Source: Candidatus Uhrbacteria bacterium (GTDB lineage: Bacteria > Patescibacteriota > Patescibacteriia > GWA2-47-26). From it: a stretch of 64,000 bases of DNA. A program made the position numbers and the translations under genes. The DNA is taken from positions 68,891 to 132,890 of the forward strand of contig JACPJN010000009.1 of NCBI GenBank assembly GCA_016187515.1. The letters run 5' to 3'. This document shows, piece after piece, positions 428-63,993 of this stretch. The notes beneath the pieces were generated by a model, which ran no database searches, was not told the DNA's origin, and saw only the letters and a list, made by a program, of their open reading frames with translations. How positions within the stretch are numbered: the first letter of the stretch is position 1; each line of letters opens with the position of its first letter.

Positions 428-2026
428 TCATTTAGATGTTAGCTCTCGAGCAATGTTATCTATATCACCCGCACCCATAACTATGACCACATCGTTAGGC
501 TGGGCAAGCTGCAATAATAACTGCTTGGTTTCTTCGAGATTGCCTCCATATCGGACATCTGCGTAATCTGGGGCCGGAGGCATCTGCGTTATCTTGTCTA
601 CAAGCATACGCGAGTTGACATCCCGCTCTTCCATCCGTCCCTTCACAGCATAAATTTCTGACACGATAACTAAATCCGCCGCGTCTTTTAGCACTTCCAC
701 AAAATCGTTAAACAAATGCTTGGTACGACTGTGCTGGTGCGGCTGAAACACAAGTACGAGCCGCCGTCCGGGATAGGCCTCTCGCGCCGCCTTCATGGTT
801 TCGCGGATCGCGGTGGGATGGTGGGCATAATCGCTAATTACCAAAATTTCCCCGGAGGACTCATAACTCCCCCTCCCCCCTCTTACCTTAAGAGGGGGTA
901 TCGATCGATCTCCCTCCCTTAAGTTAAGGGAGGGTTGGGGTGAGTTATGAACTGCTGACATAGTGCCGACGATTTCAAAACGCCGCCACACACCGCGGAA
1001 ATCACGCACGGCACTTTCCGCTACCTCGCACGGCACGCCCAACTCCATCGCGGCCGTTGCCGCCGCCGTAGCATTGTATCGGTTAAATTCGCCTGGCACT
1101 TGGAGTTGAAGTGTCCCAAAAATTTCACTACTATGCCCATAGGTAATCCGCTTTTCCCCCACTTTGTCATTTCGAGCGAAGCGAGAAATCTCATATCGTG
1201 CAGACGGCAAGGTGTGAGATCCCTCGACTCCGTACTCTGCACTCCGCTCGGGATGACGGGAAATTAGTATGCTACATCCCGCATCATCTTCATTCATCAC
1301 CACCAATCCTTCCGCTGGCACTTTCTTCACTAACTTCTGAAAGCTCTCCACCGTCTGTTCCAAATCCCGAAAATAATCCGGATGATCCCATTCAATACTG
1401 GTTACGACTACCGCATACGGTGATAATTCTAAAAAATGATCACGATAGTCGTCGCCTTCAACGATGAAAAATCTCGCGGATGCACTACGTGCCGCAGATT
1501 GCACAGATGATATATCCGCGTAATTTGCGGGCGCAGCCATCTGCGGAATCCTTATATTGCTATTCCCCCACTCCCTCACTTTGCTCCCCACAATCACGAG
1601 CGGATCCATACCGGCCGCTTCAAGAATAAGTCCGAGCATCGCGGTCGTGGTGCTTTTTCCATGCGTGCCGGTTACCACAATCGTGCGGAACTCACAGCTC
1701 ACCTGCCCCAGTGCCTGGGCATACGACAGCTCCGGAATGCCTCTCGTCCGTGCGGCGGCCCGTTCCGGATGATCTTCCGGCACCGCATCGGAGTAGATCA
1801 CGAGATTAACACCATTCAATAACTGTGAACTGTGAACTGACGACTGTGAACTAAACACTTGAATACCGTCGGATTCAAGTGTTTTAGTTATCTCACTCTC
1901 CTCCGCATCCGACCCACTCACCTGCTTTCCTTGCGCGCGCCAAAGTTGCGCCAGCGCAGATACGCCAATCCCGCCAATGCCGATGCAATGAATTTTTTGT
2001 GCAGTAGAGATGTTCATGTTACTCAT
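428..2026 (-). CDS. murC: UDP-N-acetylmuramate--L-alanine ligase, carrying two in-frame repeat insertions
   Basis: N-terminal KIHCIGIGGIGVSALAQ Rossmann motif, GTHGKSTTTAM P-loop and Mur ligase middle/C-terminal blocks; 532 aa versus about 460 typical because of inserted elements. Confidence 0.9.
   Translation of the reverse strand: MSNMNISTAQKIHCIGIGGIGVSALAQLWRAQGKQVSGSDAEESEITKTLESDGIQVFSSQSSVHSSQLLNGVNLVIYSDAVPEDHPERAAARTRGIPELSYAQALGQVSCEFRTIVVTGTHGKSTTTAMLGLILEAAGMDPLVIVGSKVREWGNSNIRIPQMAAPANYADISSVQSAARSASARFFIVEGDDYRDHFLELSPYAVVVTSIEWDHPDYFRDLEQTVESFQKLVKKVPAEGLVVMNEDDAGCSILISRHPERSAEYGVEGSHTLPSARYEISRFARNDKVGEKRITYGHSSEIFGTLQLQVPGEFNRYNATAAATAAMELGVPCEVAESAVRDFRGVWRRFEIVGTMSAVHNSPQPSLNLREGDRSIPPLKVRGGRGSYESSGEILVISDYAHHPTAIRETMKAAREAYPGRRLVLVFQPHQHSRTKHLFNDFVEVLKDAADLVIVSEIYAVKGRMEERDVNSRMLVDKITQMPPAPDYADVRYGGNLEETKQLLLQLAQPNDVVIVMGAGDIDNIARELTSK
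861..950. mobile_element. GC-rich palindromic MITE-like element (TCATAAC family), in frame in murC
   Basis: TIR TCATAACTCCCC / GGGGTGAGTTATGA flank two hairpins, CCCCCTCTTACCTTAAGAGGGGG and CCCTCCCTTAAGTTAAGGGAGGG; translated in murC as [31 protein letters not shown]. Confidence 0.85.
1822..1855. repeat. 34-nt repeat ACTGTGAACTGTGAACTGACGACTGTGAACTAAA, in frame in murC
   Basis: Identical 34-mer recurs at about 54231-54264 inside uvrC; both encode FSSQSSVHSSQ on the minus strand. Confidence 0.85.
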
Positions 2027-6528: not shown

Positions 6529-7923
6529 GTGAATGGACTACTTATGCCTACCCAATCTCCTCCTTCTTTAGCGCAGCGTATCCCGCCCCAGAATATCGAA
6601 GCCGAGCAGTCGCTGTTGGGCGCGCTTCTGATTGATAAGGACGCGATTATCAAAGTGGCTGACGTGGTCATGCCCGAGGATTTCTATAAAGATATTCATC
6701 GCCTGATCTACGAGGCCATGTCCGGGCTATTCCAGGATCGCGAGCCGATTGACCTGCTTTCGCTCTCCAATCGCCTGGAGGAGAAGAAACAGCTGGAATT
6801 GGTCGGCGGCCGGACCTACTTGATTGAACTTTCCAACGCGGTGCCCACCTCGGCCAATGTTGGCCATTACGCTTCCATTATCCAAAAAAAAGCCACCCTG
6901 CGCCGTCTGCAGCAGGCCGCGGCGCAGATCAGCACGCTTTCATTTGAAGAAGCCGAGGAAGTGGATCATCTTTTGGATAAAGCCGAGCAAAAGTTATTCA
7001 GTGTTTCGCAAAAGTATTTGAAGCAGGCCTTTATTCCGGTGCGCGATGTCTTAACCGAGGCCTTTGACCGCATTGATGAAATCCACCGCGAAAAAGGGAA
7101 ACTGCGCGGACTTTCCAGCGGATTTTTCGCGCTGGATAATCTGCTCGCCGGACTGCAGCGTTCGGATTTGGTCATTCTGGCGGCGCGGCCATCGCTGGGA
7201 AAGACCTCGCTGGCCCTGGATATCGCGCGCAACGTTGCTACGCGCGAAAAAGTTCCGGTCGGCGTCTTTTCTTTGGAAATGTCCAAAGAACAGCTGGTGG
7301 ATCGGCTGATTTGCGCCGAAGCCGGAATTGATCTTTGGCGCATGCGTACCGGACGGCTTTCGGATAAACCAGGCGAAGACGATTTCGCGCGCATTGGACA
7401 CGCGCTGGGGCAGCTCTCCGAGGCCCCCATTTATATTGATGACTCGGCCACCGCGAACATTATGGAAATTCGCACCAAAGCGCGGCGCCTGCAGATGGAA
7501 AAAGGGCTGGGACTCCTGGTGGTGGATTATTTGCAGCTAATGGAATCGCGAACGCGCATTGAAAATCGCGTGCAGGAAATTTCGGAAATTACTCGGGCGT
7601 TAAAAGCGATCGCGCGCGAGCTGAACATTCCGGTGCTCGCCTTGTCCCAGCTTTCCCGCGCGGTGGAGGCGCGCAGCCCCGCGATTCCCAAACTCGCTGA
7701 TCTTCGTGAATCTGGATCGATCGAGCAGGACGCGGACGTCGTGCTGTTTATCTATCGCAAAGCCATGGATAAAGGAGCGCAAAATCTGACGCCCGAGGAA
7801 CGCCATATTGCGGATATTTTTATTGCCAAACACCGCAATGGCCCGACCGGACAGGTGCAATTATTCTTTGACGAACAAAAAGTAAGCTTCCGTAATTTGG
7901 AGAAAACCGGACAGCCGTTTTGA
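6529..7923 (+). CDS. dnaB: replicative DNA helicase
   Basis: N-terminal IPPQNIEAEQSLLGALL, Walker A ILAARPSLGKTSLALD, and IPVLALSQLSRAVE / DADVVLFIYR motifs. Confidence 0.95.
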   Translation: MNGLLMPTQSPPSLAQRIPPQNIEAEQSLLGALLIDKDAIIKVADVVMPEDFYKDIHRLIYEAMSGLFQDREPIDLLSLSNRLEEKKQLELVGGRTYLIELSNAVPTSANVGHYASIIQKKATLRRLQQAAAQISTLSFEEAEEVDHLLDKAEQKLFSVSQKYLKQAFIPVRDVLTEAFDRIDEIHREKGKLRGLSSGFFALDNLLAGLQRSDLVILAARPSLGKTSLALDIARNVATREKVPVGVFSLEMSKEQLVDRLICAEAGIDLWRMRTGRLSDKPGEDDFARIGHALGQLSEAPIYIDDSATANIMEIRTKARRLQMEKGLGLLVVDYLQLMESRTRIENRVQEISEITRALKAIARELNIPVLALSQLSRAVEARSPAIPKLADLRESGSIEQDADVVLFIYRKAMDKGAQNLTPEERHIADIFIAKHRNGPTGQVQLFFDEQKVSFRNLEKTGQPF

Positions 7924-8012
7924 GGTAAATCAAGTGAATCAGGTAAATCAAGTAAATCAAGTAAATCAAGTGAATCAAGTGCCTGATTTACTTGTCTCGC
8001 TTGATTTACCCA
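7922..8012. repeat. tandem 9-bp repeat array (GTAAATCAA/GTGAATCAA about 7 copies) followed by inverted tail CTTGATTTACTTGTCTCGCTTGATTTAC
   Basis: Read directly in the dnaB-recR intergenic region; same architecture recurs at about 48903-49012. Confidence 0.85.
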
Positions 8013-8018
8013 ATCAAT

Positions 8019-8705
8019 ATGCAATTTCCTCCTCCCATCACCCGTCTGATCCAGCATTTCCGCGCGCTCCCCGGCGTGGGCCCGCGCACGGCCGCGCGTT
8101 TTGTATTCGCGCTATTAAACAAACCCGAAGATGAACTGCGTTCCTTTGGCCATGCCCTGGTTGATCTTAAAGAAAGCATCCGCGTGTGCAAAGCATGTTT
8201 CAACGTATCGCTGGCAAATCCCTGCCAAATTTGCGCGGATCCCAATCGCGATGCCGCCGCGCTTTGCGTGGTCGCCCGACCGCAAGATATCCAAGCCCTT
8301 GAAGAAACCCGGGAATATCATGGTCTCTATCACGTCTTGGGTGGGACGCTTAATCCGATTGAGGGCGTAACGCCGGAACAATTGCGGATTAAGGAATTGC
8401 TGAATAGAATTGATAATCCGCCGCTCCCACCCCTCCTAACCTCCCCTCGGGCAGGGGAGGAAAACGATCGTATTTCTCCCCCTTTTCAAGGGGGAGTTAG
8501 AGGGGGTCAAGACATCCAGGAAATCCTCCTCGCCTTAAACCCGGACCTGGAAGGCGAGGCCACCGCGCTTTACCTGGCCAAACTTCTTAAAGCCCGCGTG
8601 CCGCGCGTCACGCGGCTGGCCCGCGGACTGCCCCAAGGCGCGGACCTGGAATACGCCGACGAGGTAACGCTCATCAACGCGATAAAAGGACGAAGGGAAA
8701 TATGA
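8019..8705 (+). CDS. recR: recombination protein RecR, with an in-frame element
   Basis: MQFPPPITRLIQHFRALPGVGPRTAARFVFALL (HhH), C4 zinc finger CKACFNVSLANPCQIC and Toprim; track ORF starts at 7992 but the RecR alignment favours 8019. Confidence 0.88.
   Translation: MQFPPPITRLIQHFRALPGVGPRTAARFVFALLNKPEDELRSFGHALVDLKESIRVCKACFNVSLANPCQICADPNRDAAALCVVARPQDIQALEETREYHGLYHVLGGTLNPIEGVTPEQLRIKELLNRIDNPPLPPLLTSPRAGEENDRISPPFQGGVRGGQDIQEILLALNPDLEGEATALYLAKLLKARVPRVTRLARGLPQGADLEYADEVTLINAIKGRREI
8423..8508. mobile_element. GC-rich MITE-like element (CTCCCACCCC family), in frame in recR
   Basis: Hairpins CCTCCCCTCGGGCAGGGGAGG and CTCCCCCTTTTCAAGGGGGAG; encodes NPPLPPLLTSPRAGEENDRISPPFQGGVRGGQD. 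Confidence 0.8.
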
Positions 8706-36967: not shown

Positions 36968-37304
36968 AGACATCGCAAGCTAGGTCAGCATCCACTCGGG
37001 TGCAGTCCCTCAATGGAACCGCCGCGGTCAAGCACGCGCAGACATTCGCGCACCCACTCCGGCATCTCCCGCTGATCCTGCGCGCCAGAACCTCGCGCGT
37101 TTTTCGTCCGGTCCGCCTGCGCCGCGCAAGCGGGTCTGAAAACTTCCGAGACCTCTGCAAATCTTCTCACCATGTTTGTCCTCCTTTTCATTCATCCCCC
37201 TTCTGCTTTTTAGTATAAAAAAACGCCGCGCTGACAAATAGCGACAAGGTCTGAAAAGCAGGCCTCCAGGCCTGCACGACTGTTCTCCCTTTTTGCAACT
37301 AACA

Positions 37305-37370
37305 ACCCAATAACCCAAGTACCTAATCACCTAAATACCTAAGTACCTAATCACCTAATCACCTCACCCT
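37305..37370. repeat. tandem array of 8-9-bp units (TACCTAAGT / CACCTAATC)
   Basis: CAACCCAATAACCCAAGTACCTAATCACCTAAATACCTAAGTACCTAATCACCTAATCACC immediately 3' of the 626-aa gene. Confidence 0.75.
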
Positions 37371-39244
37371 TTCTCCACCAGCCCCACCCGCATCAGTTTG
37401 TCCGGTTTGAAGTGCACTTTATAATTGGAACCCAGTCCGCCGTGAATTTCCAAACCAAGGTGTTTGCCAGTCAGCTCCTTGACCACACTCACCAGGGGTC
37501 TCACGATTTTGGATTCCATCTGATTGCGATCGGAACGGTAGCAGGAGGCCGGCAATTCCGCCGCCGAGAGTTCACCGCCATTGCCCATAAACTTGCGAAA
37601 AAGTTCAATGGTTTGTTTGGCGCTGTGAATCTGGTTGGAAGTCAACGGCTTGCCCCGCACATACACTCGTCCTTCTTTACCTTCCAAAAGCAAATCAAAT
37701 CTCTCGCGTTCGCGGTCCCATTTTTCACGAGTATAAAGCGTGGCGCCAATTTTTCCTTCCCCATTCCACTCCCGCGCCGTAATACTTTGCGCGGCGGTAA
37801 ATGGCGAGTAAATCCCGGTTTCCACATGCTGTTCTACGCGCGCGCCGGCCGAAGCCGTATTGCCATCGCACCACGAAGCCCAGTGGCAATGCACGGGTTT
37901 TTTAACTTCTTCGCGGATCAGCGGCAGCGCTTCATTAAATATCGGCGCCAGAGTGTTAAGCGGCCCCAGCACCATTAAACAGCCATGATTACCCGGCCCA
38001 ATCAGCCGGGTTGCCACGCCCAAATCAGTGTGCTTGGCGCCCACCACCCGCAGCATAGTTTGCGGCCGACTCAACACTAACGGCGAAAGCCCTAAAATGC
38101 GCAGCACATGCTGACTAATGTTTTGATTTTGAAAAAAATCCCGCAAAACATGCGGCGCGGCGCCGTAAAGAAACAAGTCATGCATGGTCTTAAACACGGT
38201 CATGGACAGCACCACGGAGGACTTGCGATAGACCTGGAACATGTCCATGCCGGCGGACTGGCCCGGACCGCCTTGGGCCAGCTCCAAGAACCAAGGCGTA
38301 TCGCGGAAAGTATCCGGCACCAGATTTTTAAAAGTGCTGCTGGCAAACGCCGCGGCTTCATCCAGTTTGGCCTTAAACGCGCTGCGGGTCTGATAAACAA
38401 AACGCGAATCGCCTTCTTCTCCGGTAAACAGCAAAGCCGCGTCAATTGGCCAAGCCGGATTAGGATCCAGCTGAAACAGTTCGTCCATGCGGCTGCCGCG
38501 AAAAAATAATCCATCCGAAGCGTTATAGTAAGAAGACGGATGCTCCAAGCCATAATCCCGATAGTGGTCAAACAAAAACGGGTCCGGTTCGCGAAAATAA
38601 ACCACTGGATACTGGGAATCAATTAAAGTGGCAAAAGTGATATGCGCGTCTGAAAGCCAATTGGCAATAATGGAATCCAGTTTCCAGGCCAGGCGAAATA
38701 CTTTTTCAAAGGCCTTAGACCCGGCCAGCTGTTCGGTGGGCATTTTCACGAATTCCGCCGCTTCGCTCGGAGTAATCGCGCCTAAATGCAGCAGCCAGGC
38801 CGTGGCGATGGACGCTCCGCAAAGCGGATCCACATTAAGTCCGCGATACCACGGAATCTCGCAAAGCATCCAAATCCGGGCGCCCTGGCTTTTGCGGTAC
38901 GGCGCGGCCGCGTGCGCGAGCATTTCCAAAAGCAGCGGATTGCAGCGCGTCGTATCCCAGTCCTCAAATTCATCGCGTTCCGGAATAAAATAGCGCATTG
39001 GTCCATAACTGATTCCGCTGGCCGCGCAGGGCTCAATGCCAATATGAATTCTTAGCGGCAATTTGCTAATCAGGCCAATCCCGCCCGGGCCTACGGCATA
39101 AGTGGGCGACCACATCAAAGTGGCCGGCGCGGAAACCACCGTGGGACAAGAACGATACAGCTCTTCATAAAGCTGGCGATGCCGCTCTTGAATGGTCTGA
39201 CTGTTAGCGTGGGTATGAAATTCTTTAGATAGCATACTGTGCAA
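37364..39244 (-). CDS. large hypothetical protein (626 aa)
   Basis: Long uninterrupted ORF; no family confidently recognised. Confidence 0.5.
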   Translation of the reverse strand: MHSMLSKEFHTHANSQTIQERHRQLYEELYRSCPTVVSAPATLMWSPTYAVGPGGIGLISKLPLRIHIGIEPCAASGISYGPMRYFIPERDEFEDWDTTRCNPLLLEMLAHAAAPYRKSQGARIWMLCEIPWYRGLNVDPLCGASIATAWLLHLGAITPSEAAEFVKMPTEQLAGSKAFEKVFRLAWKLDSIIANWLSDAHITFATLIDSQYPVVYFREPDPFLFDHYRDYGLEHPSSYYNASDGLFFRGSRMDELFQLDPNPAWPIDAALLFTGEEGDSRFVYQTRSAFKAKLDEAAAFASSTFKNLVPDTFRDTPWFLELAQGGPGQSAGMDMFQVYRKSSVVLSMTVFKTMHDLFLYGAAPHVLRDFFQNQNISQHVLRILGLSPLVLSRPQTMLRVVGAKHTDLGVATRLIGPGNHGCLMVLGPLNTLAPIFNEALPLIREEVKKPVHCHWASWCDGNTASAGARVEQHVETGIYSPFTAAQSITAREWNGEGKIGATLYTREKWDRERERFDLLLEGKEGRVYVRGKPLTSNQIHSAKQTIELFRKFMGNGGELSAAELPASCYRSDRNQMESKIVRPLVSVVKELTGKHLGLEIHGGLGSNYKVHFKPDKLMRVGLVEKG

Positions 39245-46574: not shown

Positions 46575-47882
<1,308 letters not shown>

Positions 47883-48545: not shown

Positions 48546-48926
48546 CTATCGCGCCGCCACTACCCCGGTAGTTGACGACACATATTGCACATCGGTTGCG
48601 GCGATCATGCCGGACTCGCGCACCCAGGCCTCAATCCGTTGCGGCGTCTGCATTTCCGCGCTCTTTAGATTAAGCCGTTTATTTTCAAATTTCAAAGCCT
48701 CAATCCGGCGCTCCAGATCCTTCATTTTGTATCCATGAGTCGAGACGCTGACCATGGTCGTAAGATAAGAAAAGCCAACCGCGATAAGCGCGACCGCTAG
48801 CAAACCGCGCCAGGTTTTACGCGTGCTCATCAGGCGCATTATAAGACCAACTCGCCGCATGGTATGGTGGATTTTCGTAAGGTGGAAATGTCGGGGCATA
48901 ACAATTGAGTAAATCAAGTGAATCAA
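48546..48926 (-). CDS. ftsL: cell division protein FtsL-like (probable start about 48860)
   Basis: Single TM LLAVALIAVGFSYLTTMV followed by coiled coil DLERRIEALKFENKRLNLKSAEMQTP; sits between rsmH and the higBA pair. Confidence 0.65.
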   Translation of the reverse strand: MIHLIYSIVMPRHFHLTKIHHTMRRVGLIMRLMSTRKTWRGLLAVALIAVGFSYLTTMVSVSTHGYKMKDLERRIEALKFENKRLNLKSAEMQTPQRIEAWVRESGMIAATDVQYVSSTTGVVAAR

Positions 48927-49012
48927 GTAAATCAGGTAAATCAGGTAAATCAGGTAAATCAGGTGGCTTGACTTGCCTGCCTCGCTTGATTTACTTGTCT
49001 CGCTACAATTTC
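48903..49012. repeat. tandem 9-bp repeat array (GTAAATCAA/G about 7 copies) with inverted tail CTCGCTTGATTTACTTGTCTCGC
   Basis: Same architecture and unit as 7922..8012; lies between the rsmH stop and the ftsL start. Confidence 0.85.
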
Positions 49013-49998
49013 TCGATAACTCTCATCTTCGCGCTCCGGGCGCGCGGATTTATTCTAATCTCGCTATCACTCGGCACCACTGGTTTTTTGGTAAGTATTT
49101 TTAACTTCTGGTCCGGCCACTGCCGAAAAAACTGTTTGACGATCCGATCTTCCAGCGAATGAAACGCGATGACGGCCAGTCGTCCGCCGCGGTGCAGGAT
49201 TTCCACAGCTTGCGGCAGTACGGCTTGCAAAGCGCCCAGCTCATCATTTACCGCAATCCGCAATGCCTGGAAAGTGCGCGTGGCTGGATGCAATCCGCCG
49301 ATCCAGGGCATGCGATCCGCATTGCTCCCACCCCTCCTCGCCTCCCCTCGGGCAGGGGAGGAAAAATCTTTTCTCCCCCTCTCCGAGGGGGAGTTAGAGG
49401 GGGTGTGCTTACTAAGCTTCTCTCTATACGCTTGCACCACCACATCACTCAGTTGTTTGCTGGTCACCATTGGCTTCTTTTTCCGTTCTTCCACAATGCG
49501 GTTCGCGATCTCGCGCGCTAATCGCTCTTCCCCATATTCCGTGAGTAACTCCGCAAGCTGCTTCTGATTCCACGAGTTCACAATTTCTGCCGCGCGCACG
49601 CCGCGCGACACATCAAACCGCATGTCCAGCAGTTCATCCTTCTCAAACGAGAATCCCCTGCCTCGCTCAAGCGTCGAGGAAGAAAATCCTAGATCAAGAA
49701 GTATTCCCTGCACCGTCCCGAATTTTTGCTCCTTCACAATCGCGGCCAAGTTCCGGAAATTATCATTCACGAGCACAATGCGATTCAAGTATTTTCTAAT
49801 TTCGAATTGCGAATTTCTAATTTCAGTGATGGCGTCTGGATCGGCATCTATACCTAGTAATCTTCCAACGGGCGCGGTGTGCTGTAGGATTGCGGCACTA
49901 TGACTGCCATCACCGATCGTGCAATCCACAAAATTCTGATTCGGTTTAGGGTCAAGGAACTTCAGCGCTTCTTCTACCATGACTGGCACATGGGACAT
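49003..49998 (-). CDS. rsmH: 16S rRNA (cytosine1402-N4)-methyltransferase with in-frame insertions
   Basis: MSHVPVMVEEAL, FVDCTIGDGSHS, DLGFSS and AFHSLEDRIVK motifs; inserted HTPSNSPSERGRKDFSSPARGEARRGGSN and EIRNSQFEIRKY segments. Confidence 0.9.
   Translation of the reverse strand: MSHVPVMVEEALKFLDPKPNQNFVDCTIGDGSHSAAILQHTAPVGRLLGIDADPDAITEIRNSQFEIRKYLNRIVLVNDNFRNLAAIVKEQKFGTVQGILLDLGFSSSTLERGRGFSFEKDELLDMRFDVSRGVRAAEIVNSWNQKQLAELLTEYGEERLAREIANRIVEERKKKPMVTSKQLSDVVVQAYREKLSKHTPSNSPSERGRKDFSSPARGEARRGGSNADRMPWIGGLHPATRTFQALRIAVNDELGALQAVLPQAVEILHRGGRLAVIAFHSLEDRIVKQFFRQWPDQKLKILTKKPVVPSDSEIRINPRARSAKMRVIEKL
49325..49406. mobile_element. GC-rich MITE-like element (CTCCCACCCC family) in frame in rsmH
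   Basis: GCTCCCACCCCTCCTCGCCTCCCCTCGGGCAGGGGAGG...CTCCCCCTCTCCGAGGGGGAGTTAGAGGGGGTG. Confidence 0.8.
49786..49835. repeat. AT-rich insertion (TATTTTCTAATTTCGAATTGCGAATTTCTAATTTCAGTG) in frame in rsmH
   Basis: Shares the ATTTCTAATTTCGAAT core with the tgt insertion; low GC island inside a GC-rich CDS. Confidence 0.65.
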
Positions 49999-50001
49999 AT
50001 T

Positions 50002-50451
50002 TTAAATCCCAAACTCATTAAGCGCTTCCGCGTGCGCTTCCATCTCATCTGCGGTTCGCGTCTGATGCGCCCGCCATTTTTCCTTATCCCAAATCTCCAG
50101 CCGCTCCCCTGCCCCCAAAACCACCGCGTCTTTTTGAAGCGCCGCATGATCTTTCAAATAGTCCGGCACCAGAATTCTTCCGAGATTGTCAAGTTCCACC
50201 TCGCTCGCTCCGGAAAACATAAACCGCTTAAAATTTCTGCTGCTTTCGCTGGTAAGCGGCAAGGCGTTTAACTTGGCCGCAAACTCTTCCCAGGCCCGTA
50301 GCGGATATACAAATAAACACCCTTCCAGTCCGCGAGTGACCACCACTTTCGGACCAAGCTCGCTGCGCAGTCGCGCGGGCATCGGAAGGCGCCGCTTTGC
50401 ATCCATTTTGTGCTGATACTCGCCGATAAGCATACGGATTAAGACCGGCAA
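50002..50451 (-). CDS. mraZ: transcriptional regulator MraZ
   Basis: Two SpoVT/AbrB-like repeats (KMDAKRRLPMPARLRSEL; VELDNLGRILVPDYLKDHA); immediately upstream of rsmH; probable start M at 50433. Confidence 0.85.
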   Translation of the reverse strand: MPVLIRMLIGEYQHKMDAKRRLPMPARLRSELGPKVVVTRGLEGCLFVYPLRAWEEFAAKLNALPLTSESSRNFKRFMFSGASEVELDNLGRILVPDYLKDHAALQKDAVVLGAGERLEIWDKEKWRAHQTRTADEMEAHAEALNEFGI

Positions 50452-50524: not shown

Positions 50525-50600
50525 TGGTAAAGTTATGCACATTTATCCACAGAGTTATCCACTTCTTACCACTTTTGTATTTGTACAGGTATATTATAGC
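50525..50600 (-). promoter_or_regulatory. mraZ promoter region: extended -10 (TGTGCTATAAT) plus three direct GTGG(A/T)TAA repeats (candidate MraZ operator; two are DnaA-box-identical TTATCCACA)
   Basis: Minus strand ...TTTGTGCTATAATATACCTGTACAAATACAAAAGTGGTAAGAAGTGGATAACTCTGTGGATAAATG; the repeats are spaced 10-12 bp as in known MraZ boxes. Confidence 0.5.
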
Positions 50601-50705
50601 ACAAATTTTCCCACTGCTCAAACTCTCCCCGCTTACTGAAAAATTCGAAAAAACCCCAGTATTTGGCCAAAATCCTATGGGCCGGCAAAACCTTTGTGGA
50701 TAAAA

Positions 50706-52923: not shown

Positions 52924-54411
52924 TTAGTGGAATTTCTTACGCCGCCGCGGCCTGAACCCGCGGCCCCTTAACCTCCGATGATAGCATACCGCAAACCGGT
53001 GCGCTTCGTCACGCACGCGCAAAAGAAAATCCTTATAATTTTCCACAATGCGGACAAGCTCGGGATTATCCTTATCAAAAATTGGCCGGTCTTGCTTGCG
53101 CTTAAAACCTTTGGCAATGCCGACGATGAGAATGTGGAGCCCACCTGCCTGCACCACGTCCCGCGCCGCATTCACCTGCCCCCAACCGCCGTCAATCACG
53201 ATCAAATCTGGCATGGGCCATTCAACCCCCTCTTTCTCCCCCTTCCCAAGGGGGAGATTAAGTGGGGGTCCGGAGCGCTTGAACCGTCGCGCCAGCACTT
53301 CGCGCATCATCGCCACATCATTAATCCCCTGCACAGTTTTAATTTTAAATCTTTTGTATTCGCGTTTGGACGGTTCGCCATTTTGGAATACCACCATTGA
53401 TCCCACTGCGCTAGTGCCGCTGATATTGGAAATATCATATCCTTCGATACGACCGAGGATACTGATCGGCGTAGGGCATAGAGCGTAGGGCGTAGAGCTT
53501 TGCCTCTTTGCTCTATGCTCTATGCCATCTGCCGCCAACACGGCCACATCCCGAATATGCTTCAGCGCAAATAATTTCCTCTTCAGCGATTCGGCCTCCT
53601 CAAACTTTTCTTCACGCGCGGCATTCTTCATTCTTAATTCTAAATTCTTCATTACTTTCGCCTTTTTGCCTTCCAGCATCAAAATCACATTCCGAATATT
53701 TTTCATATACTCTTTGCGCGTGACCGCGCCCACACACACCCCCGGACAGCGGCCGATATGATAATCAAAGCACGGTTTTCGTGGTGATTCGTTTTTTTTA
53801 TTCGTGGTAATTCGTGTCATGCACCGCCACGGAAACCACTTCCGCATCAAATCCAGCGCCGCGCGAATGGAGGAGGCGCTCGTATATGGACCGAACACTT
53901 TGATCGCTCGTAACCCCCTCGCACTCCCCCTTACCCTAAGGGGGAAAAACGAACGATCTCCCTCCCTTAAGGTAAGGGAGGGCTGGGGTGGGTTATGAAT
54001 GGTGGCATATTGTGCCAGCTCATTCCCCCGCACCAGCTGCACCTTAGGAAAACGCTCATTAGTAATAACCACGTAAAGGAATGACTTATCATCTTTTTCC
54101 CTTACATTATAGCGCGGCTGATATTTTTTAATTAAATTCGCCTCCAGTATCAACGCCTCAATTACGCTGTCCGTCACCTGATAATCAATCCGCGCCACCT
54201 CATGCAACATCTCATCAATCGTCCTCCGATACTGTGAACTGTGAACTGACGACTGTGAACTAAAGTACGAGTTTACTCGTATTTTAAGATTCGTCGCTTT
54301 CCCCACATACACCACCTTCCCCTTTTTATCGCGCATCAAATACACCCCTGGTTTGGTGGGAAGTTTGTTGTGTTTGATTTTGATTATCTTTTGGATTGAC
54401 ATAATCCTCAC
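52924..54411 (-). CDS. uvrC: excinuclease ABC subunit C (short form lacking the C-terminal HhH domain), with in-frame repeat insertions
   Basis: GIY-YIG KPGVYLMRDKKGKVVYVGKATNLKIRVNSY, UvrBC-interaction region, RNase H-like endonuclease domain; probable ATG at 54402 (MSIQK). Confidence 0.85.
   Translation of the reverse strand: MRIMSIQKIIKIKHNKLPTKPGVYLMRDKKGKVVYVGKATNLKIRVNSYFSSQSSVHSSQYRRTIDEMLHEVARIDYQVTDSVIEALILEANLIKKYQPRYNVREKDDKSFLYVVITNERFPKVQLVRGNELAQYATIHNPPQPSLTLREGDRSFFPLRVRGSARGLRAIKVFGPYTSASSIRAALDLMRKWFPWRCMTRITTNKKNESPRKPCFDYHIGRCPGVCVGAVTRKEYMKNIRNVILMLEGKKAKVMKNLELRMKNAAREEKFEEAESLKRKLFALKHIRDVAVLAADGIEHRAKRQSSTPYALCPTPISILGRIEGYDISNISGTSAVGSMVVFQNGEPSKREYKRFKIKTVQGINDVAMMREVLARRFKRSGPPLNLPLGKGEKEGVEWPMPDLIVIDGGWGQVNAARDVVQAGGLHILIVGIAKGFKRKQDRPIFDKDNPELVRIVENYKDFLLRVRDEAHRFAVCYHRRLRGRGFRPRRRKKFH
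53907..53999. mobile_element. GC-rich MITE-like element (TCGTAAC/TCATAAC family) in frame in uvrC
   Basis: GCTCGTAACCCCCTCGCACTCCCCCTTACCCTAAGGGGGA...TCCCTCCCTTAAGGTAAGGGAGGGCTGGGGTGGGTTATGAA; a solo hairpin module also lies at about 53225-53270. Confidence 0.8.
54231..54264. repeat. second copy of the 34-nt GTGAACTG repeat, in frame in uvrC
   Basis: ACTGTGAACTGTGAACTGACGACTGTGAACTAAA identical to 1822..1855; encodes FSSQSSVHSSQ. Confidence 0.85.
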
Positions 54412-58737: not shown

Positions 58738-60933
58738 ATTGTTTGCCGGCTTCTTGCTTTGCTTCCTTAATACTTGTATCTCGTCTCTCAAGATTGCCGC
58801 CAATTCAAACTGCAGCAAATTTGCCGCCTCGCGCATTTGTTTTTCCTTTTCGCGAATCAAGTCATCCGCGCGTCCGCCCTTCGCTTGTGTTTCAAGCTCC
58901 AGCGCTTTTTTCGCCAATTCTTCCTCTTTTCGTTTGGTCAGGCCTTCCGTAATGTCTTTGATGGCTTTTTTAATTGTGCGCGGGGTAATGCCGTGCGCTT
59001 TATTGTAAGCCATTTGCAATTTGCGCCGCCGATCGGTTTCCCGAATTGCCCGCGTGATTGAGCCGGTCATCTGGTCTGCATAAAGCACGACTTGCCCATG
59101 CACATTGCGCGCCGCGCGACCAATGGTCTGGATTAGCGAGGTTTCACTGCGCAAAAATCCTTCTTTATCCGCGTCTAAAATTGCCACGAGCGACACCTCG
59201 GGCAAATCCAGTCCTTCGCGGAGCAAGTTTACACCCACCAATACATCAAATTTACCGCGCCGAAAATCGGTGAGAATCGTAATGCGATCCAGCGTGTCCA
59301 CATCAGAATGCAAATATTGCACTTTTATTTTTAAATCGGCAAGATATTCAGTTAAATCCTCGGCCATTTTCTTGGTCAGGGTGGTTACCATCACCCGCTC
59401 ATGCCTTTTCACACGCTCCTTTACGCGCGCCATCAAATCCTCCACCTGGGATTTAGAAGCCATGGTTACGCCATGACTACGCAATGTCACGCCAGTTGGC
59501 GTCTTGTGGCGTAGTGATGGCGTTTTTGTGGCCTCTACCGCCCCAGTTATAGGGCGTACAATAATTTCTGGATCAACCAGTCCGGTCGGCCGAATAATTT
59601 GCTCCACCACGCCATTTGCTCTTTGCTCTTTGCTCTTGGCCAATTCATATGTTCCTGGCGTGGCCGAAGTATAAATCGTCTGCGGCATACGCGCCTCAAA
59701 TTCCTCAAATTTAAGCGGCCGATTATCAATCGCGCTCGGCAGGCGGAACCCATATTCGATAAGCGCCTGTTTGCGGCTGCGATCACCTTCGTACATCCCC
59801 TGGATCTGGGGAAGCGTTACGTGGGATTCGTCAATAACTAGGAGCCAATCATTAGCACGCTGTCCCCCTCCCCTAACCCCTCCCACCAAGGGAGGGGGAT
59901 TTGTTGTTCCTCCCTCTCCCCTTGTGGGAGAGGGTTGGGGTGAGGGGTAACGCGTGAAATAATCCAACAACGTCTTTGCCGGCTCTCCGGGCGCGCGGCC
60001 ATCAAAATGCCGCGAGTAATTTTCAATGCCATGACAAAATCCAACTTGTGCAATCATTTCCAAATCATAACGCGTGCGCCGTTCCAGCCGCTCGGCTTCC
60101 AGCAGTTTTCCGGTTTTATTAAAATACGCTAACCGATCTTTAAGCTCGGCGCGGATGTCTTTGATGGCGCGCTTGACTTGCGGTTCATCCGCCACATAAT
60201 GTTTGGTTGGAAAAATCCACACCGAGTCCACTTTTTCACGCACTTTTCGGGTTACCGGATCAATCATAATAATCTCCCCGACTTCCTGCGCGCTTAAATC
60301 CACGCGATAAATCATATCGTGATTGGAAGGCATGACTTCAAAAGTTTGTCCCCTCATCCTAAACATTCCACGTTTTACTTCAGCATTCGTACGCGCATAT
60401 TGCATTTTGGTCAGCGTTTTCAAAATATCTACGCGCCCAATAACTTGCCCACGCGTCAATTTCATGGACATTTTCTCATACGTCTCCGGCGATCCAATGT
60501 TGTAAATGCACGAAACCGAGGCCACAATAATTACATCGCGCCGGGTAAGTAGCGCTTGTGTTGCCGCGTGCCGCAACCGATCAATTTCTTCATTAATCAT
60601 GGCTTCTTTTTCAATATAAGTATCCGTGCGCGGCAAATACGCCTCCGGCTGATAGTAATCGTAGTAGGACACAAAATACTCCACCGCGCTGTCCGGAAAA
60701 AACTCCCGATATTCATTGCAAAGCTGGGCCGCCAGCGTCTTGTTATGCGCAATGACTAAAGTCGGCCGCTGGACTTTTTCAATCACATTAGCAATACTGA
60801 AAGTTTTTCCACTGCCCGTAACACCAAGCAAGGTTTGATGCGCGTCGCCACGCTCAAGTCCATCCACGAGTTGCTTAATCGCCCGCGGCTGGTCACCTGC
60901 CGGCTTGAATTTACTTCTGATCCTAAATTTCAT
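58726..60933 (-). CDS. uvrB: excinuclease ABC subunit B with an in-frame element
   Basis: GDQPRAIKQLVDGL, LLGVTGSGKTF, helicase motifs, UvrB/UvrC interaction C-terminus; inserted PSPQPSPTRGEGGTTNPPPLVGGVRGGGQR. Confidence 0.92.
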   Translation of the reverse strand: MKFRIRSKFKPAGDQPRAIKQLVDGLERGDAHQTLLGVTGSGKTFSIANVIEKVQRPTLVIAHNKTLAAQLCNEYREFFPDSAVEYFVSYYDYYQPEAYLPRTDTYIEKEAMINEEIDRLRHAATQALLTRRDVIIVASVSCIYNIGSPETYEKMSMKLTRGQVIGRVDILKTLTKMQYARTNAEVKRGMFRMRGQTFEVMPSNHDMIYRVDLSAQEVGEIIMIDPVTRKVREKVDSVWIFPTKHYVADEPQVKRAIKDIRAELKDRLAYFNKTGKLLEAERLERRTRYDLEMIAQVGFCHGIENYSRHFDGRAPGEPAKTLLDYFTRYPSPQPSPTRGEGGTTNPPPLVGGVRGGGQRANDWLLVIDESHVTLPQIQGMYEGDRSRKQALIEYGFRLPSAIDNRPLKFEEFEARMPQTIYTSATPGTYELAKSKEQRANGVVEQIIRPTGLVDPEIIVRPITGAVEATKTPSLRHKTPTGVTLRSHGVTMASKSQVEDLMARVKERVKRHERVMVTTLTKKMAEDLTEYLADLKIKVQYLHSDVDTLDRITILTDFRRGKFDVLVGVNLLREGLDLPEVSLVAILDADKEGFLRSETSLIQTIGRAARNVHGQVVLYADQMTGSITRAIRETDRRRKLQMAYNKAHGITPRTIKKAIKDITEGLTKRKEEELAKKALELETQAKGGRADDLIREKEKQMREAANLLQFELAAILRDEIQVLRKQSKKPANNSPS
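59864..59952. mobile_element. GC-rich MITE-like element in frame in uvrB
   Basis: CCCCCTCCCCTAACCCCTCCCACCAAGGGAGGGGG...CCTCCCTCTCCCCTTGTGGGAGAGGGTTGGGGTGAGGGGTAACG. Confidence 0.75.
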
Positions 60934-62658: not shown

Positions 62659-63993
62659 TCACCTCCTTTGCAAATTTGATATCCGCACTCCGATTAAACG
62701 GATCAACCGCGTTTTCTTCAAATATGGAATGAGAAGCTTAAGCGCCTCCCGTTTAAGTATTGTACCATCGGCGCTAAAATGCCGCAAGGTGTACGCGGCA
62801 GTATGGGTCTCAAAATTCTCAAACCGCACCCGCATGGTAATCGTACGAAATTGCACGCTTTCCTTTCGCGCCTCATCCATCACCTCATCACACAACTCCA
62901 TAAGTGTGCGCGTCAAAAGGGCTTGGTCCCGTGTGTCAGCCGCAAACGTAGTTTCATGGCCCACGGATTTTGCCTCATATTCCTCAACCACCGGAGAATC
63001 ATCCCGGCCATGCGCGCGGTCAAACAACTCATCACTGCGCGGCAGAGACACCCTCAAGTCCCGAATGGTTTTAATCCCCTGCCGCGCGAGCTGCGCCTCG
63101 GTTTTAGGCCCAATTCCGGGCAATCGGCGCACCGGCAATGGATCTAAAAATTCCTGCACGCGCTCGGGCGTGACCACTGTCAACCCGTCCGGCTTTTTAA
63201 AATCCGAAGCAATTTTGGCAATCAATTTATTTGGTCCGATTCCAATCGAGCAAGTCAATCGTTCGCGCTTCAAAATCTCCATCTTAATCTTTCTCGCAAT
63301 CCTCTCCGCCTCCTCCAACGCATTTCCATAATTCATGATTCGTAATTCATGCTTCATCAACTCAACATACGCTTCGTCCACGGACACCTGTTCCATTGGC
63401 ACACCCCCTCTAACTCCCCCTCGAAGAGGGGGAGAAACGAAACGATTTCCCCCCCTGCCCGAGGGGGGGTGCGGGGGGGTGGGAGCGACCGCGCACTCAA
63501 CCACTTCCTTTACCACCTTCATAATCCGCTCCGACACAATCCCATACAACTTCCCATCCACCGGCAAATACGCGCACTGCGGCGCCGAGCATAATTTCCA
63601 AGCGCGAGAAATCGGCATGGCGCTATGAATTCCAAATTTCCGCGCGGCATAATTTGCCGTCGACACCACGCCGCGGCCTTGGCCTTCCTTCGGATCAGCG
63701 CCTACCACAATGGGGCACCCCTTAAGTTCCGGATGCTCCCTTTCCTCCACTGCCGCAAAAAACGCGTCCATGTCAATATGTAATATTATACGCGCCATAT
63801 ACAACAAAACCCCTTCAAACTGATTCAAAAAATCAAAAGGGCAAAGATACAAAGAGTTTAGGTTTTTGACTTGCCTGCCCCGCACCAAGCTACGCTTTGG
63901 TGCTGGGGCGGAGGCGGAAGACAAACCGGTTGACAGGATACCACCTGCTCTCTGGCTTCGCCCAGTTGCGGCGCAGCCACAACCCGTCCTCAT
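62659..63993 (-). CDS. dinB: DNA polymerase IV (Y-family) with an in-frame element (probable start 63798)
   Basis: MARIILHIDMDAFFAAVEEREHPELKGCPIVVG, SIDEAYVEL-like and GIGPKTEAQL motifs; inserted [30 protein letters not shown]. Confidence 0.9.
   Translation of the reverse strand: MRTGCGCAATGRSQRAGGILSTGLSSASAPAPKRSLVRGRQVKNLNSLYLCPFDFLNQFEGVLLYMARIILHIDMDAFFAAVEEREHPELKGCPIVVGADPKEGQGRGVVSTANYAARKFGIHSAMPISRAWKLCSAPQCAYLPVDGKLYGIVSERIMKVVKEVVECAVAPTPPHPPSGRGGNRFVSPPLRGGVRGGVPMEQVSVDEAYVELMKHELRIMNYGNALEEAERIARKIKMEILKRERLTCSIGIGPNKLIAKIASDFKKPDGLTVVTPERVQEFLDPLPVRRLPGIGPKTEAQLARQGIKTIRDLRVSLPRSDELFDRAHGRDDSPVVEEYEAKSVGHETTFAADTRDQALLTRTLMELCDEVMDEARKESVQFRTITMRVRFENFETHTAAYTLRHFSADGTILKREALKLLIPYLKKTRLIRLIGVRISNLQRR
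63403..63487. mobile_element. GC-rich MITE-like element (CTCCCACCCC family, reverse orientation) in frame in dinB
   Basis: ACACCCCCTCTAACTCCCCCTCGAAGAGGGGGAG...TTCCCCCCCTGCCCGAGGGGGGGTGCGGGGGGGTGGGAGCG. Confidence 0.8.

Follow-up and report, generated by a model that had tools for sequence, protein, structure and literature searches.

What kind of element fills the space between one gene's stop codon and the next gene's start with a run of tandem repeats and an inverted copy of the same repeats? The question arises at two places in a 64,000-nucleotide stretch of a Candidatus Uhrbacteria genome (Patescibacteriota; contig JACPJN010000009.1, positions 68,891 to 132,890), hereafter called the window: once between dnaB and recR (element 1), and once between rsmH and an ftsL/divIC-like gene (element 2), all four being housekeeping genes. 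The original prediction, made from the letters of the window, described these regions as arrays of about seven 9-bp units of a possibly iteron-like, possibly phase-variable kind. Here, we report that both loci are copies of one short non-coding foldback element, composed of a six-unit arm, a 4-5-nt turn and an inverted arm. We consider it probable that they are derivatives, lacking an open reading frame (ORF), of a cassette that carries a PF05635 gene and resembles the intervening sequences (IVSs) of rRNA genes, and that they are selfish or neutral insertions.

Tandem Repeats Finder (TRF) places the repeated part of element 1 at 7925-7980 (period 9, 6.2 copies, 89% matches) and that of element 2 at 48909-48964 (period 9, 6.2 copies, 93% matches). 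The loci and the 9-bp unit are as first described, and only the count needs correction, each locus having six full GTRAATCAR units plus a partial seventh, 'GTG'. All 15 matches to GTRAATCAR in the window fall at these two loci, against 1.88 expected and a maximum of 6 in shuffled sequence. The tails are inverted arms of three to four units from the same 9-mer family as the forward arm, in line with the architecture originally proposed: CTGATTTAC (7983-7991), TTGTCTCGC (7992-8000) and TTGATTTAC (8001-8009) in element 1, and TTGACTTGC (48968-76), CTGCCTCGC (48977-85), TTGATTTAC (48986-94) and TTGTCTCGC (48995-49003) in element 2. Within these arms GTAAATCAA-type and GCGAGRCAR-type units alternate, the consensus of the whole family being GYRARNCMR; TRF reports an 18-bp period (2.2 copies) in the tail of element 2. 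Neither element carries an ORF. Both are about 90 bases long and span the spacer, abutting the upstream stop codon (dnaB, rsmH) and ending 9 nt before the downstream ATG, and so lie directly upstream of gene starts, as had been claimed; the repeat sits between a stop and a start codon, not in a promoter spacer or a reading frame. Relative to transcription, the two elements have opposite orientations. The gene assignments of the original prediction are borne out by solved RsmH structures and NCBIfam matches (Table 1), the ftsL-like gene resting on sub-threshold matches; its start (MPRHFHLTK, ATG 48899-48897, minus strand) was set by the ortholog in L207.

Comparison with relatives bears on where these elements come from. 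The DnaB of the window shares 85% identity with its counterpart in Candidatus Uhrbacteria RIFCSPHIGHO2_02_FULL_46_47 (L001), the remaining matches being to Patescibacteria, and 80 dnaB loci were collected. Short tandem arrays with differing units are common among them, often as inverted pairs. The dnaB-recR spacer measures 6-27 bp in six relatives (L004, L007, L008, L010, L056, L074). Tandem-unit hairpins occupy its full length from stop to ATG in the window (9-mers), in L005 and L006 (7-mers) and in L003, and in L002 it holds a non-tandem inverted repeat. In L001 the same spacer contains a 123-aa ORF between inverted 9-mer arrays, and the encoded protein belongs to PF05635/TIGR02436 (the '23S rRNA intervening-sequence' or four-helix-bundle protein; E = 7e-40). 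The arm units of this cassette, AGCAAGACC, AGCGAGACC and AGTAAAACC, parallel the variants GCAAGTCAA, GCGAGACAA and GTAAATCAA of the window, the right arms of element 1 and of the L001 cassette are identical at 14 of 18 positions over TTTAC-CTCGC, and in L087 GTAAATCAA units stand alongside TGGTCTTGC, which exactly matches the reverse complement of the L001 unit. Two homologs of the L001 protein, 78% and 80% identical, were found with the same arms, one in L210, where the gene is called between dnaB and recR, and one in L211, a 1.1-kb contig on which neighbouring genes are not identifiable. At the other junction, the rsmH-ftsL spacer of L207 is 3 bp long ('taaGCTatg'), and L208, from the same genome as L001, has a foldback differing from that of the window. 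These comparisons show that the element is present or absent at orthologous junctions and that its arms are homologous to those of a PF05635 cassette at the same junction.

The same sequence recurs far from these genes. A scan of metagenome contigs for three consecutive units matched at least 120 contigs, none from the same species; inverted units lay nearby in only 13 of 127 arrays, many matches being unrelated coding repeats. The composite GTAAATCAAGTGAATCARGTAAATCAAG-turn-CTTGATTTACTTGYCYYGC was found again in nine metagenome loci of 35-51% GC, which represent seven distinct elements (L110, L156 and L183 being identical) with the consensus GTAAATCAAGTGAATCAAGTAAATCAAG-turn-GCTTGATTTACTTGNCTCGCTTGATTTAC. 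Most of these loci have one end 2-9 nt upstream of an ATG (rpsL, rfbD, uvrA, pyk, purH), and the element can face either way with respect to the downstream gene; on one metagenome contig, an array lies in frame within ligA. The internal order of variants, GTAAATCAA-GTGAATCAR-GTAAATCAA, is kept across unrelated contigs, and this common imperfect order argues for copying of whole elements rather than independent slippage. The same composite sequence has spread to unrelated junctions and genomes; further copies of the unit, whose absence the original prediction had named as evidence against itself, do exist in other genomes. Its suggestion of phase variation finds no support in the available proxies. 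L110, L156 and L183, from three samples, carry one family member in identical form with four units, and two assemblies of the closest relative (L208 and L209) show 2 substitutions but no indel between them across 21.5 kb holding such arrays; the variant order is conserved and the neighbours are housekeeping genes.

The association of such arms with PF05635 genes extends well beyond L001. A sediment contig (L213) has a PF05635 gene (64% homolog) whose arms, GTAAATCAA GTAAATCAA GCGAGTCAA and TTGACTTGATTTAC TTGACTCGC TTGATTTAC, are made of the window's own units, and in L212 a 67% homolog of the L001 protein lies at another site, before pyrG, between arms of the same 9-mer family. Arrays stand on both sides of 9/9 full-length PF05635 genes examined in Patescibacteria. 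The family is large (1229 relatives of one PF05635 query at E <= 1e-10; none in the viral contigs scanned), and the L001 protein matches cyanobacterial and Riemerella plasmid genes with up to 53.5% identity. Heptamer arrays, usually inverted and often filling the stop-to-ATG spacer, accompany 13 of the 14 plasmid genes inspected on one or both sides. When gene ends were counted in eight 6-kb loci, some of them homologous to one another, an array lay within 70 bp of 12/16 PF05635 gene ends and of 11/101 other coding-sequence ends (Fisher p = 2e-7). The full cassette is an arm, a PF05635 gene and an inverted arm. PF05635 proteins, named for a four-helix bundle or for the 23S rRNA intervening sequence, are related to Avd, the accessory protein of diversity-generating retroelements; outside these retroelements, we know of no function for PF05635/TIGR02436 proteins. 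Our literature search found no paper linking PF05635 genes to tandem repeat arrays.

Two observations on array-flanked inserts deserve separate mention. On three cyanobacterial plasmids (L202, L206, L218), PF05635 genes flanked by heptamer arrays on both sides lie between cas10 and cmr3 and between cas6 and cas4. An association of PF05635 with cas loci has been reported (PMC3936711), and it may stem from insertion at operon junctions and not from a role in CRISPR. In a Falkowbacteria contig (L012, 5396-5617), a GC-rich segment of ~135 nt that looks structured lies between dnaB and the gene after it, enclosed by inverted AATTTTT/TTAAAAA arrays; this segment may be a small RNA of no known family, carried as cargo.

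That arrays travel together with a protein gene raises the alternative that an oligomeric protein binds the tandem units and thereby controls recR and ftsL, or else the element; it could be an iteron-type binder or a toroidal PF05635 homopentamer acting like TRAP. Across contigs of 35-55% GC the sequence of the 9-mer family is maintained, and conservation in the inverted arm exceeds what complementarity would demand. Arms beside PF05635 genes and arrays within genes typically have ~4.3-4.7 units, equal to five cores, and S23p/Xcc0516 is described as a homopentameric toroid (Lin 2006, as cited in PMC4990558). However, a single genome holds many unrelated unit families (at least 10 units in the window) and the window has no PF05635 gene; its arms have six units, and those of Cyanobacteria 3-15; and elements face both ways relative to the downstream gene. 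GC skew in the window is uniformly negative, without a sign switch, so no replication origin lies inside it. We consider a protein-binding array unlikely, and the iteron-type array of the original prediction is not upheld, given the missing replication context, the two orientations and the fact that the family flanks PF05635 genes.

A broader form of the idea would join PF05635 proteins and short tandem arrays, from heptamers of the short tandemly repeated repetitive (STRR) type to 9-mers, into one system across phyla. A homopentameric toroid would recognise arms of about five units beside its own gene in the manner of TRAP. Protein and cassette would travel as one, inserting at stop/start junctions and in rRNA helices, and arm pairs without a gene, the two window loci among them, would be its scattered binding sites or remnants. 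This is a speculative proposal that we think will probably not hold. If true, it would account for the orphan PF05635 family and at the same time for how the unexplained tandem heptamers arose in Cyanobacteria, Xanthomonas, Beggiatoaceae, Bacteroidota and Patescibacteria.

As RNA, the arms of both elements are complementary and are predicted to form a stable stem-loop, like the borders of an IVS. The minimum free energies (MFE) of loci 1 and 2 are -35.3 and -40.4 kcal/mol (z = -7.8 and -6.3 against shuffles). The share of the best structure in the ensemble is small at both loci (0.09-0.12), which fits alternative, slipped registers of the hairpin, as had been foreseen. Sense and antisense strands of locus 1 fold equally well; at locus 2 the antisense strand is 14.6 kcal/mol better, and two in-gene foldbacks likewise fold far better on the antisense strand. 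Across 31 hairpins compared, the sense strand was weaker in 16 and stronger in 10, a bias that is not significant. Replication-strand mutation bias was ruled out as a cause of the antisense preference, the plus strand being C-rich throughout. Neither a sigma-70-like promoter nor an intrinsic terminator (T-run) was found inside either element, and Rfam at gathering thresholds gave no match for the window, L001, L005 or L012, nor any for the L012 insert at E <= 1.

Strong predicted stems could also mean that the hairpin benefits the host, by processing or stabilising the operon mRNA (as an RNase III site or as a 3' end protector like repetitive extragenic palindromic (REP) sequences) or by adjusting the translational coupling of recR and ftsL. 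At both loci the element fits exactly between the stop codon and a point 9 nt short of the ATG, which is consistent with such a role, as are the presence of some hairpin at the same junctions in several lineages and the lack of a Shine-Dalgarno sequence in the empty spacers of relatives. Yet close relatives manage with empty spacers of 3-27 bp, the strand comparison above reveals no preference for the sense strand, there is neither a T-run terminator nor an Rfam family, and the same class of repeat stands in frame inside genes, where a cleavage site would do harm. A useful hairpin of this kind is, in our assessment, quite unlikely.

Beyond what the original prediction covered, the two loci belong to a window rich in short tandem repeats, as well as to a family tied to PF05635. 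We counted 14 arrays of period 7-9 with at least three copies, against 0.28 in dinucleotide shuffles, and they comprise at least 10 different units. Period 7 characterises eleven other arrays; both loci have period 9, so they do not share the heptamer unit. Most arrays lie in frame in long conserved ORFs (murC, tgt, rsmH, uvrC, uvrB, dinB). Those in tgt are clean insertions of ~20 and ~23 additional residues relative to solved structures. By contrast with such insertions, the arrays of rsmH, murC and dinB overlie ortholog segments of similar length that also bear arrays, and are old and positionally stable rather than recent insertions. Those of rsmH and dinB (63327-63355) have a fixed length of ~33 bp, and in three genomes (the window, L208 and L207) each keeps its site and ~4.6 units; the unit is similar in dinB and wholly different in rsmH (GAAATTA, GGAATYA and CACGTAA). 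The pattern suggests that units at a constant site and length turn over in concert or are replaced again and again. An identical 31-bp heptamer array, ACTGTGAACTGTGAACTGACGACTGTGAACT, internal variant included, was observed in frame in murC (1822-1852) and in uvrC (54231-54261); it encodes SSQSSVHSSQ(L/Y), and next to each copy the native coding sequence contains a short inverted repeat.

Turnover at a constant position, as seen for the rsmH units, is what would be expected if these were simple-sequence repeats built in place, by replication slippage and strand-switch (snap-back) synthesis at fragile stop/start junctions, immobile and possibly serving as phase-variable switches. Lineages share insertion hot spots but differ in the inserts found there, and a link to slippage is known for the class of repeats with 5-11-nt units, heptamers above all (Mrazek 2007, as summarised in PMC4679880). 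Against this origin, an imperfect ordered composite is common to both window loci and to unrelated loci of other genomes, and copies at different loci share, as far as this could be seen in part, an identity beyond the units that does not depend on the flanks. The 31-bp array recurs with the same internal variant in murC and uvrC, the number of units is constant in three samples of one locus and between two assemblies over 21.5 kb, the neighbours are housekeeping genes and the arrays hold no promoter. We judge construction in place to be very unlikely for the two loci.

We return to the reading of the two loci as ORF-less foldback derivatives of an IVS-like PF05635 cassette. Either the cassette lost its gene to give the ORF-less form or, conversely, a hairpin came first and the gene was inserted into its loop. 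If the elements are IVS-type insertions, selfish or neutral, they would, by analogy, be transcribed within the polycistronic mRNA, where their arms would pair into an imperfect stem of roughly 25-30 bp. Such a stem could bring the upstream stop and the downstream start close to each other, so that the insert would stay harmless, and it would be a plausible RNase III substrate, like IVS stems in rRNA.

Several points weigh against this interpretation. The 64-kb window has no PF05635 gene, hence no 'master' copy for this genome. No transposition mechanism, target-site duplication, transposase or other associated enzyme was found for these elements, and to our knowledge the four-helix-bundle protein is not a recombinase. 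When the elements and the metagenome copies were inspected by eye for target-site duplications, only a 6-bp ACAATT on both sides of locus 2 was seen and nothing comparable at locus 1 or in those copies; we treat it as chance. The rsmH array, with its position and ~4.6 units kept in three genomes and its unit sequence wholly changed, is better explained by turnover in place than by simple copy-and-paste, which shows that copy-and-paste alone is not the whole story. In addition, forward and inverted arms are not simply complementary: the systematic GCGAGRCAR units of the latter leave internal loops, and pairing is thus not the sole constraint on the sequence. The PF05635 examples number about two dozen, some of them homologous loci, and transcription, folding and RNase III cleavage of the elements are putative, being drawn from prediction and analogy.

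Table 1. Elements, flanking genes and other repeats in the window (+, forward strand; -, reverse strand).
Feature	Position	Strand	Remarks
Element 1, forward arm	7925..7978	+	GTAAATCAA / GTGAATCAG / GTAAATCAA x3 / GTGAATCAA; begins 1 nt past dnaB stop
Element 1, turn and inverted arm	7979..8009	+	turn GTGC; arm ends 9 nt before recR ATG
Element 2, forward arm	48909..48962	+ (flanking genes on -)	six tandem 9-mers; outer end 9 nt from ftsL-like ATG
Element 2, turn and inverted arm	48963..49003	+	turn GTGGC; last base overlaps rsmH stop codon (49003-49005)
dnaB (replicative helicase)	6544..7923	+	TIGR00665, 554.8 bits, cut-off 385 (NCBIfam); stop TGA 7921-7923
recR	8019..8705	+	TIGR00615, 221.9 bits, cut-off 162.6 (NCBIfam); in-frame GC-rich palindromic insert 8415-8507
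rsmH (mraW)	49003..49998	-	solved RsmH structures matched at E = 5e-63; contains heptamer array 49793-49824 and GC-rich palindromic insert 49324-49404
ftsL/divIC-like gene	48546..48899	-	only sub-threshold FtsL/DivIC matches
8-mer array	37305..37364	-	AGGTGATT-type on minus strand; starts at TGA stop of ORF 37364-39244; same class
Heptamer foldback in tgt	46803..46868	-	ATTGGAT x4.6, 6-nt turn, inverted x4; in frame; ~23 aa extra vs solved TGT structures
Heptamer foldback in uvrC	53468..53525	-	GGCGTAG... / CTCTATG...; in frame
Single heptamer arm in murC	1821..1852	-	AACTGTG x4.6; in frame
Single heptamer arm in rsmH	49793..49824	-	
GC-rich palindrome in murC	857-946		
GC-rich palindrome in recR	8415-8507		
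GC-rich palindrome in tgt	47172-47258		
GC-rich palindrome in rsmH	49324-49404		
GC-rich palindrome in uvrC	53905-53994		
GC-rich palindrome in uvrB	59863-59949		
GC-rich palindrome in dinB	63400-63483		

Several other repeats were recorded in the window. The 'different 9-mer array' that the original prediction placed at 37305-37370 has period 8, not 9. The ORF at whose stop it starts encodes 626 aa without a Pfam match, and on the minus strand of 37243-37364 the array is followed by a terminator-like hairpin, GCAGGCC-TGGA-GGCCTGC, plus TTTTC. A second repeat class consists of GC-rich palindromes of 81-93 bp, each a double hairpin, which are inserted in frame into seven genes (Table 1), have RNA MFE values of -43 to -61 kcal/mol and encode 'NPxQPxLxLRxGD..'-like peptides. 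They are missing from orthologs or stand at other sites there, and at one tgt site a relative has a GC-rich palindrome where the window has the heptamer foldback; in behaviour they are similar to Rickettsia palindromic elements (RPEs). At 59459-59530, in frame in uvrB, an array of 11-bp period is accompanied by an inverted partner (GCCATGGTTAC... / ...GTGATGGCG); one relative has a different insert at this site and another has none. Upstream of mraZ (50002-50451), on the minus strand of 50533-50640, a promoter-like extended -10, TGTGCTATAAT, precedes four GTGG/GTGC boxes, AGTGGTAAGAAGTGGATAACTCTGTGGATAAATGTGCATAA, spaced by ~10-12 nt, which we take to be the probable MraZ operator; their reverse complement reads like DnaA boxes (TTATCCACA).

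The findings bear on two puzzles at once, as they link the orphan PF05635 family to short tandem repeats that lack an accepted origin or role in Cyanobacteria, Xanthomonas and Beggiatoaceae. A defined module, an arm, a PF05635 gene and an inverted arm at stop/start junctions, with gene-less foldbacks as its derivatives, offers a testable handle on both. For the annotation of genomes of the Candidate Phyla Radiation (CPR), these elements and the GC-rich palindromes matter as they lengthen conserved proteins in frame, and a PF05635 gene within a cas operon may have been inserted there without being a cas component.

Among known systems, iterons and contingency loci share with the elements described here tandem direct repeats beside gene starts. 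Iterons, however, have units of 17-22 bp in place of 9 nt, and the present elements have an inverted arm, no rep gene or origin, and an operon junction as their site. Contingency loci differ in that the neighbours here are housekeeping genes and the proxies reveal no copy-number variation. REP sequences, bacterial interspersed mosaic elements (BIMEs) and REP doublets forming hairpins (REPINs) are short palindromic repeats dispersed at gene ends in operons, and RPEs are in-frame insertions in conserved protein genes, tolerated in surface loops. The likeness of our elements to REP sequences and RPEs is one of behaviour only, including presence or absence that differs among relatives; their arms are tandem arrays rather than a unique palindrome and the copy number per family is low. 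No transposase of the REP-associated tyrosine transposase (RAYT) type was seen, though no search for a RAYT gene or consensus was made.

The closest parallels are found in two other groups. IVSs of rRNA genes have complementary sequences at their borders and in some cases contain an S23p/PF05635 ORF; RNase III cuts them out, and they are considered selfish (PMC4990558). In the rRNA genes of CPR bacteria ORF-less and PF05635 ORF-bearing insertions coexist (PMC11270868). The IVSs of Leptospira, Coxiella and Brucella and the CPR rRNA insertions thus resemble the present elements in having ORF-bearing and ORF-less forms, in the ORF family (PF05635) and in their sporadic occurrence among relatives. 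They differ in location, an rRNA helix for IVSs and, for the present elements, a site between protein-coding genes or in frame within them (no rRNA gene lies in the window), and in their arms, which are here made of tandem 7-9-nt units. Excision by RNase III is known for IVSs and is a putative step for the present elements.

The second group is that of long-unit tandem repeats, which includes the STRR heptamers of Cyanobacteria, the TAACTGA repeats of Beggiatoaceae, Cyanobacteria and Bacteroidetes, whose arrays lie next to start codons and have no known function (PMC4679880), and the GGGAATC repeats of Xanthomonas, with ~70 convergent pairs, also of unknown function (PMC4692102). As a side observation, tandem heptamer arrays (TTTTGAT, AAATTTA) in successive ribosomal-protein operon spacers around rplN and rplX of a metagenome contig of 36% GC (L181, 5774-6726) match the TAACTGA repeats reported in Beggiatoaceae ribosomal-protein operons. 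Long-unit repeats and the present elements alike consist of head-to-tail units of 7-9 nt in 3-18 copies, are mostly intergenic and lie a few nucleotides from start or stop codons, sometimes overlapping stops or inside ORFs, and their inverted pairs can form stem-loops; both window loci have head-to-tail units in the 5-11-nt range above chance and are intergenic and near gene ends, as are the metagenome copies. The taxa rich in such repeats overlap with those rich in PF05635. What sets the present elements apart is the 9-nt unit, a structured mix of two unit types, many unit families per genome in place of a single dominant unit, and a host in the Patescibacteria. The elements are a variant of kinds already known, IVS-type elements and long-unit tandem repeats, and are of interest chiefly for the link between PF05635 genes and tandem arrays.

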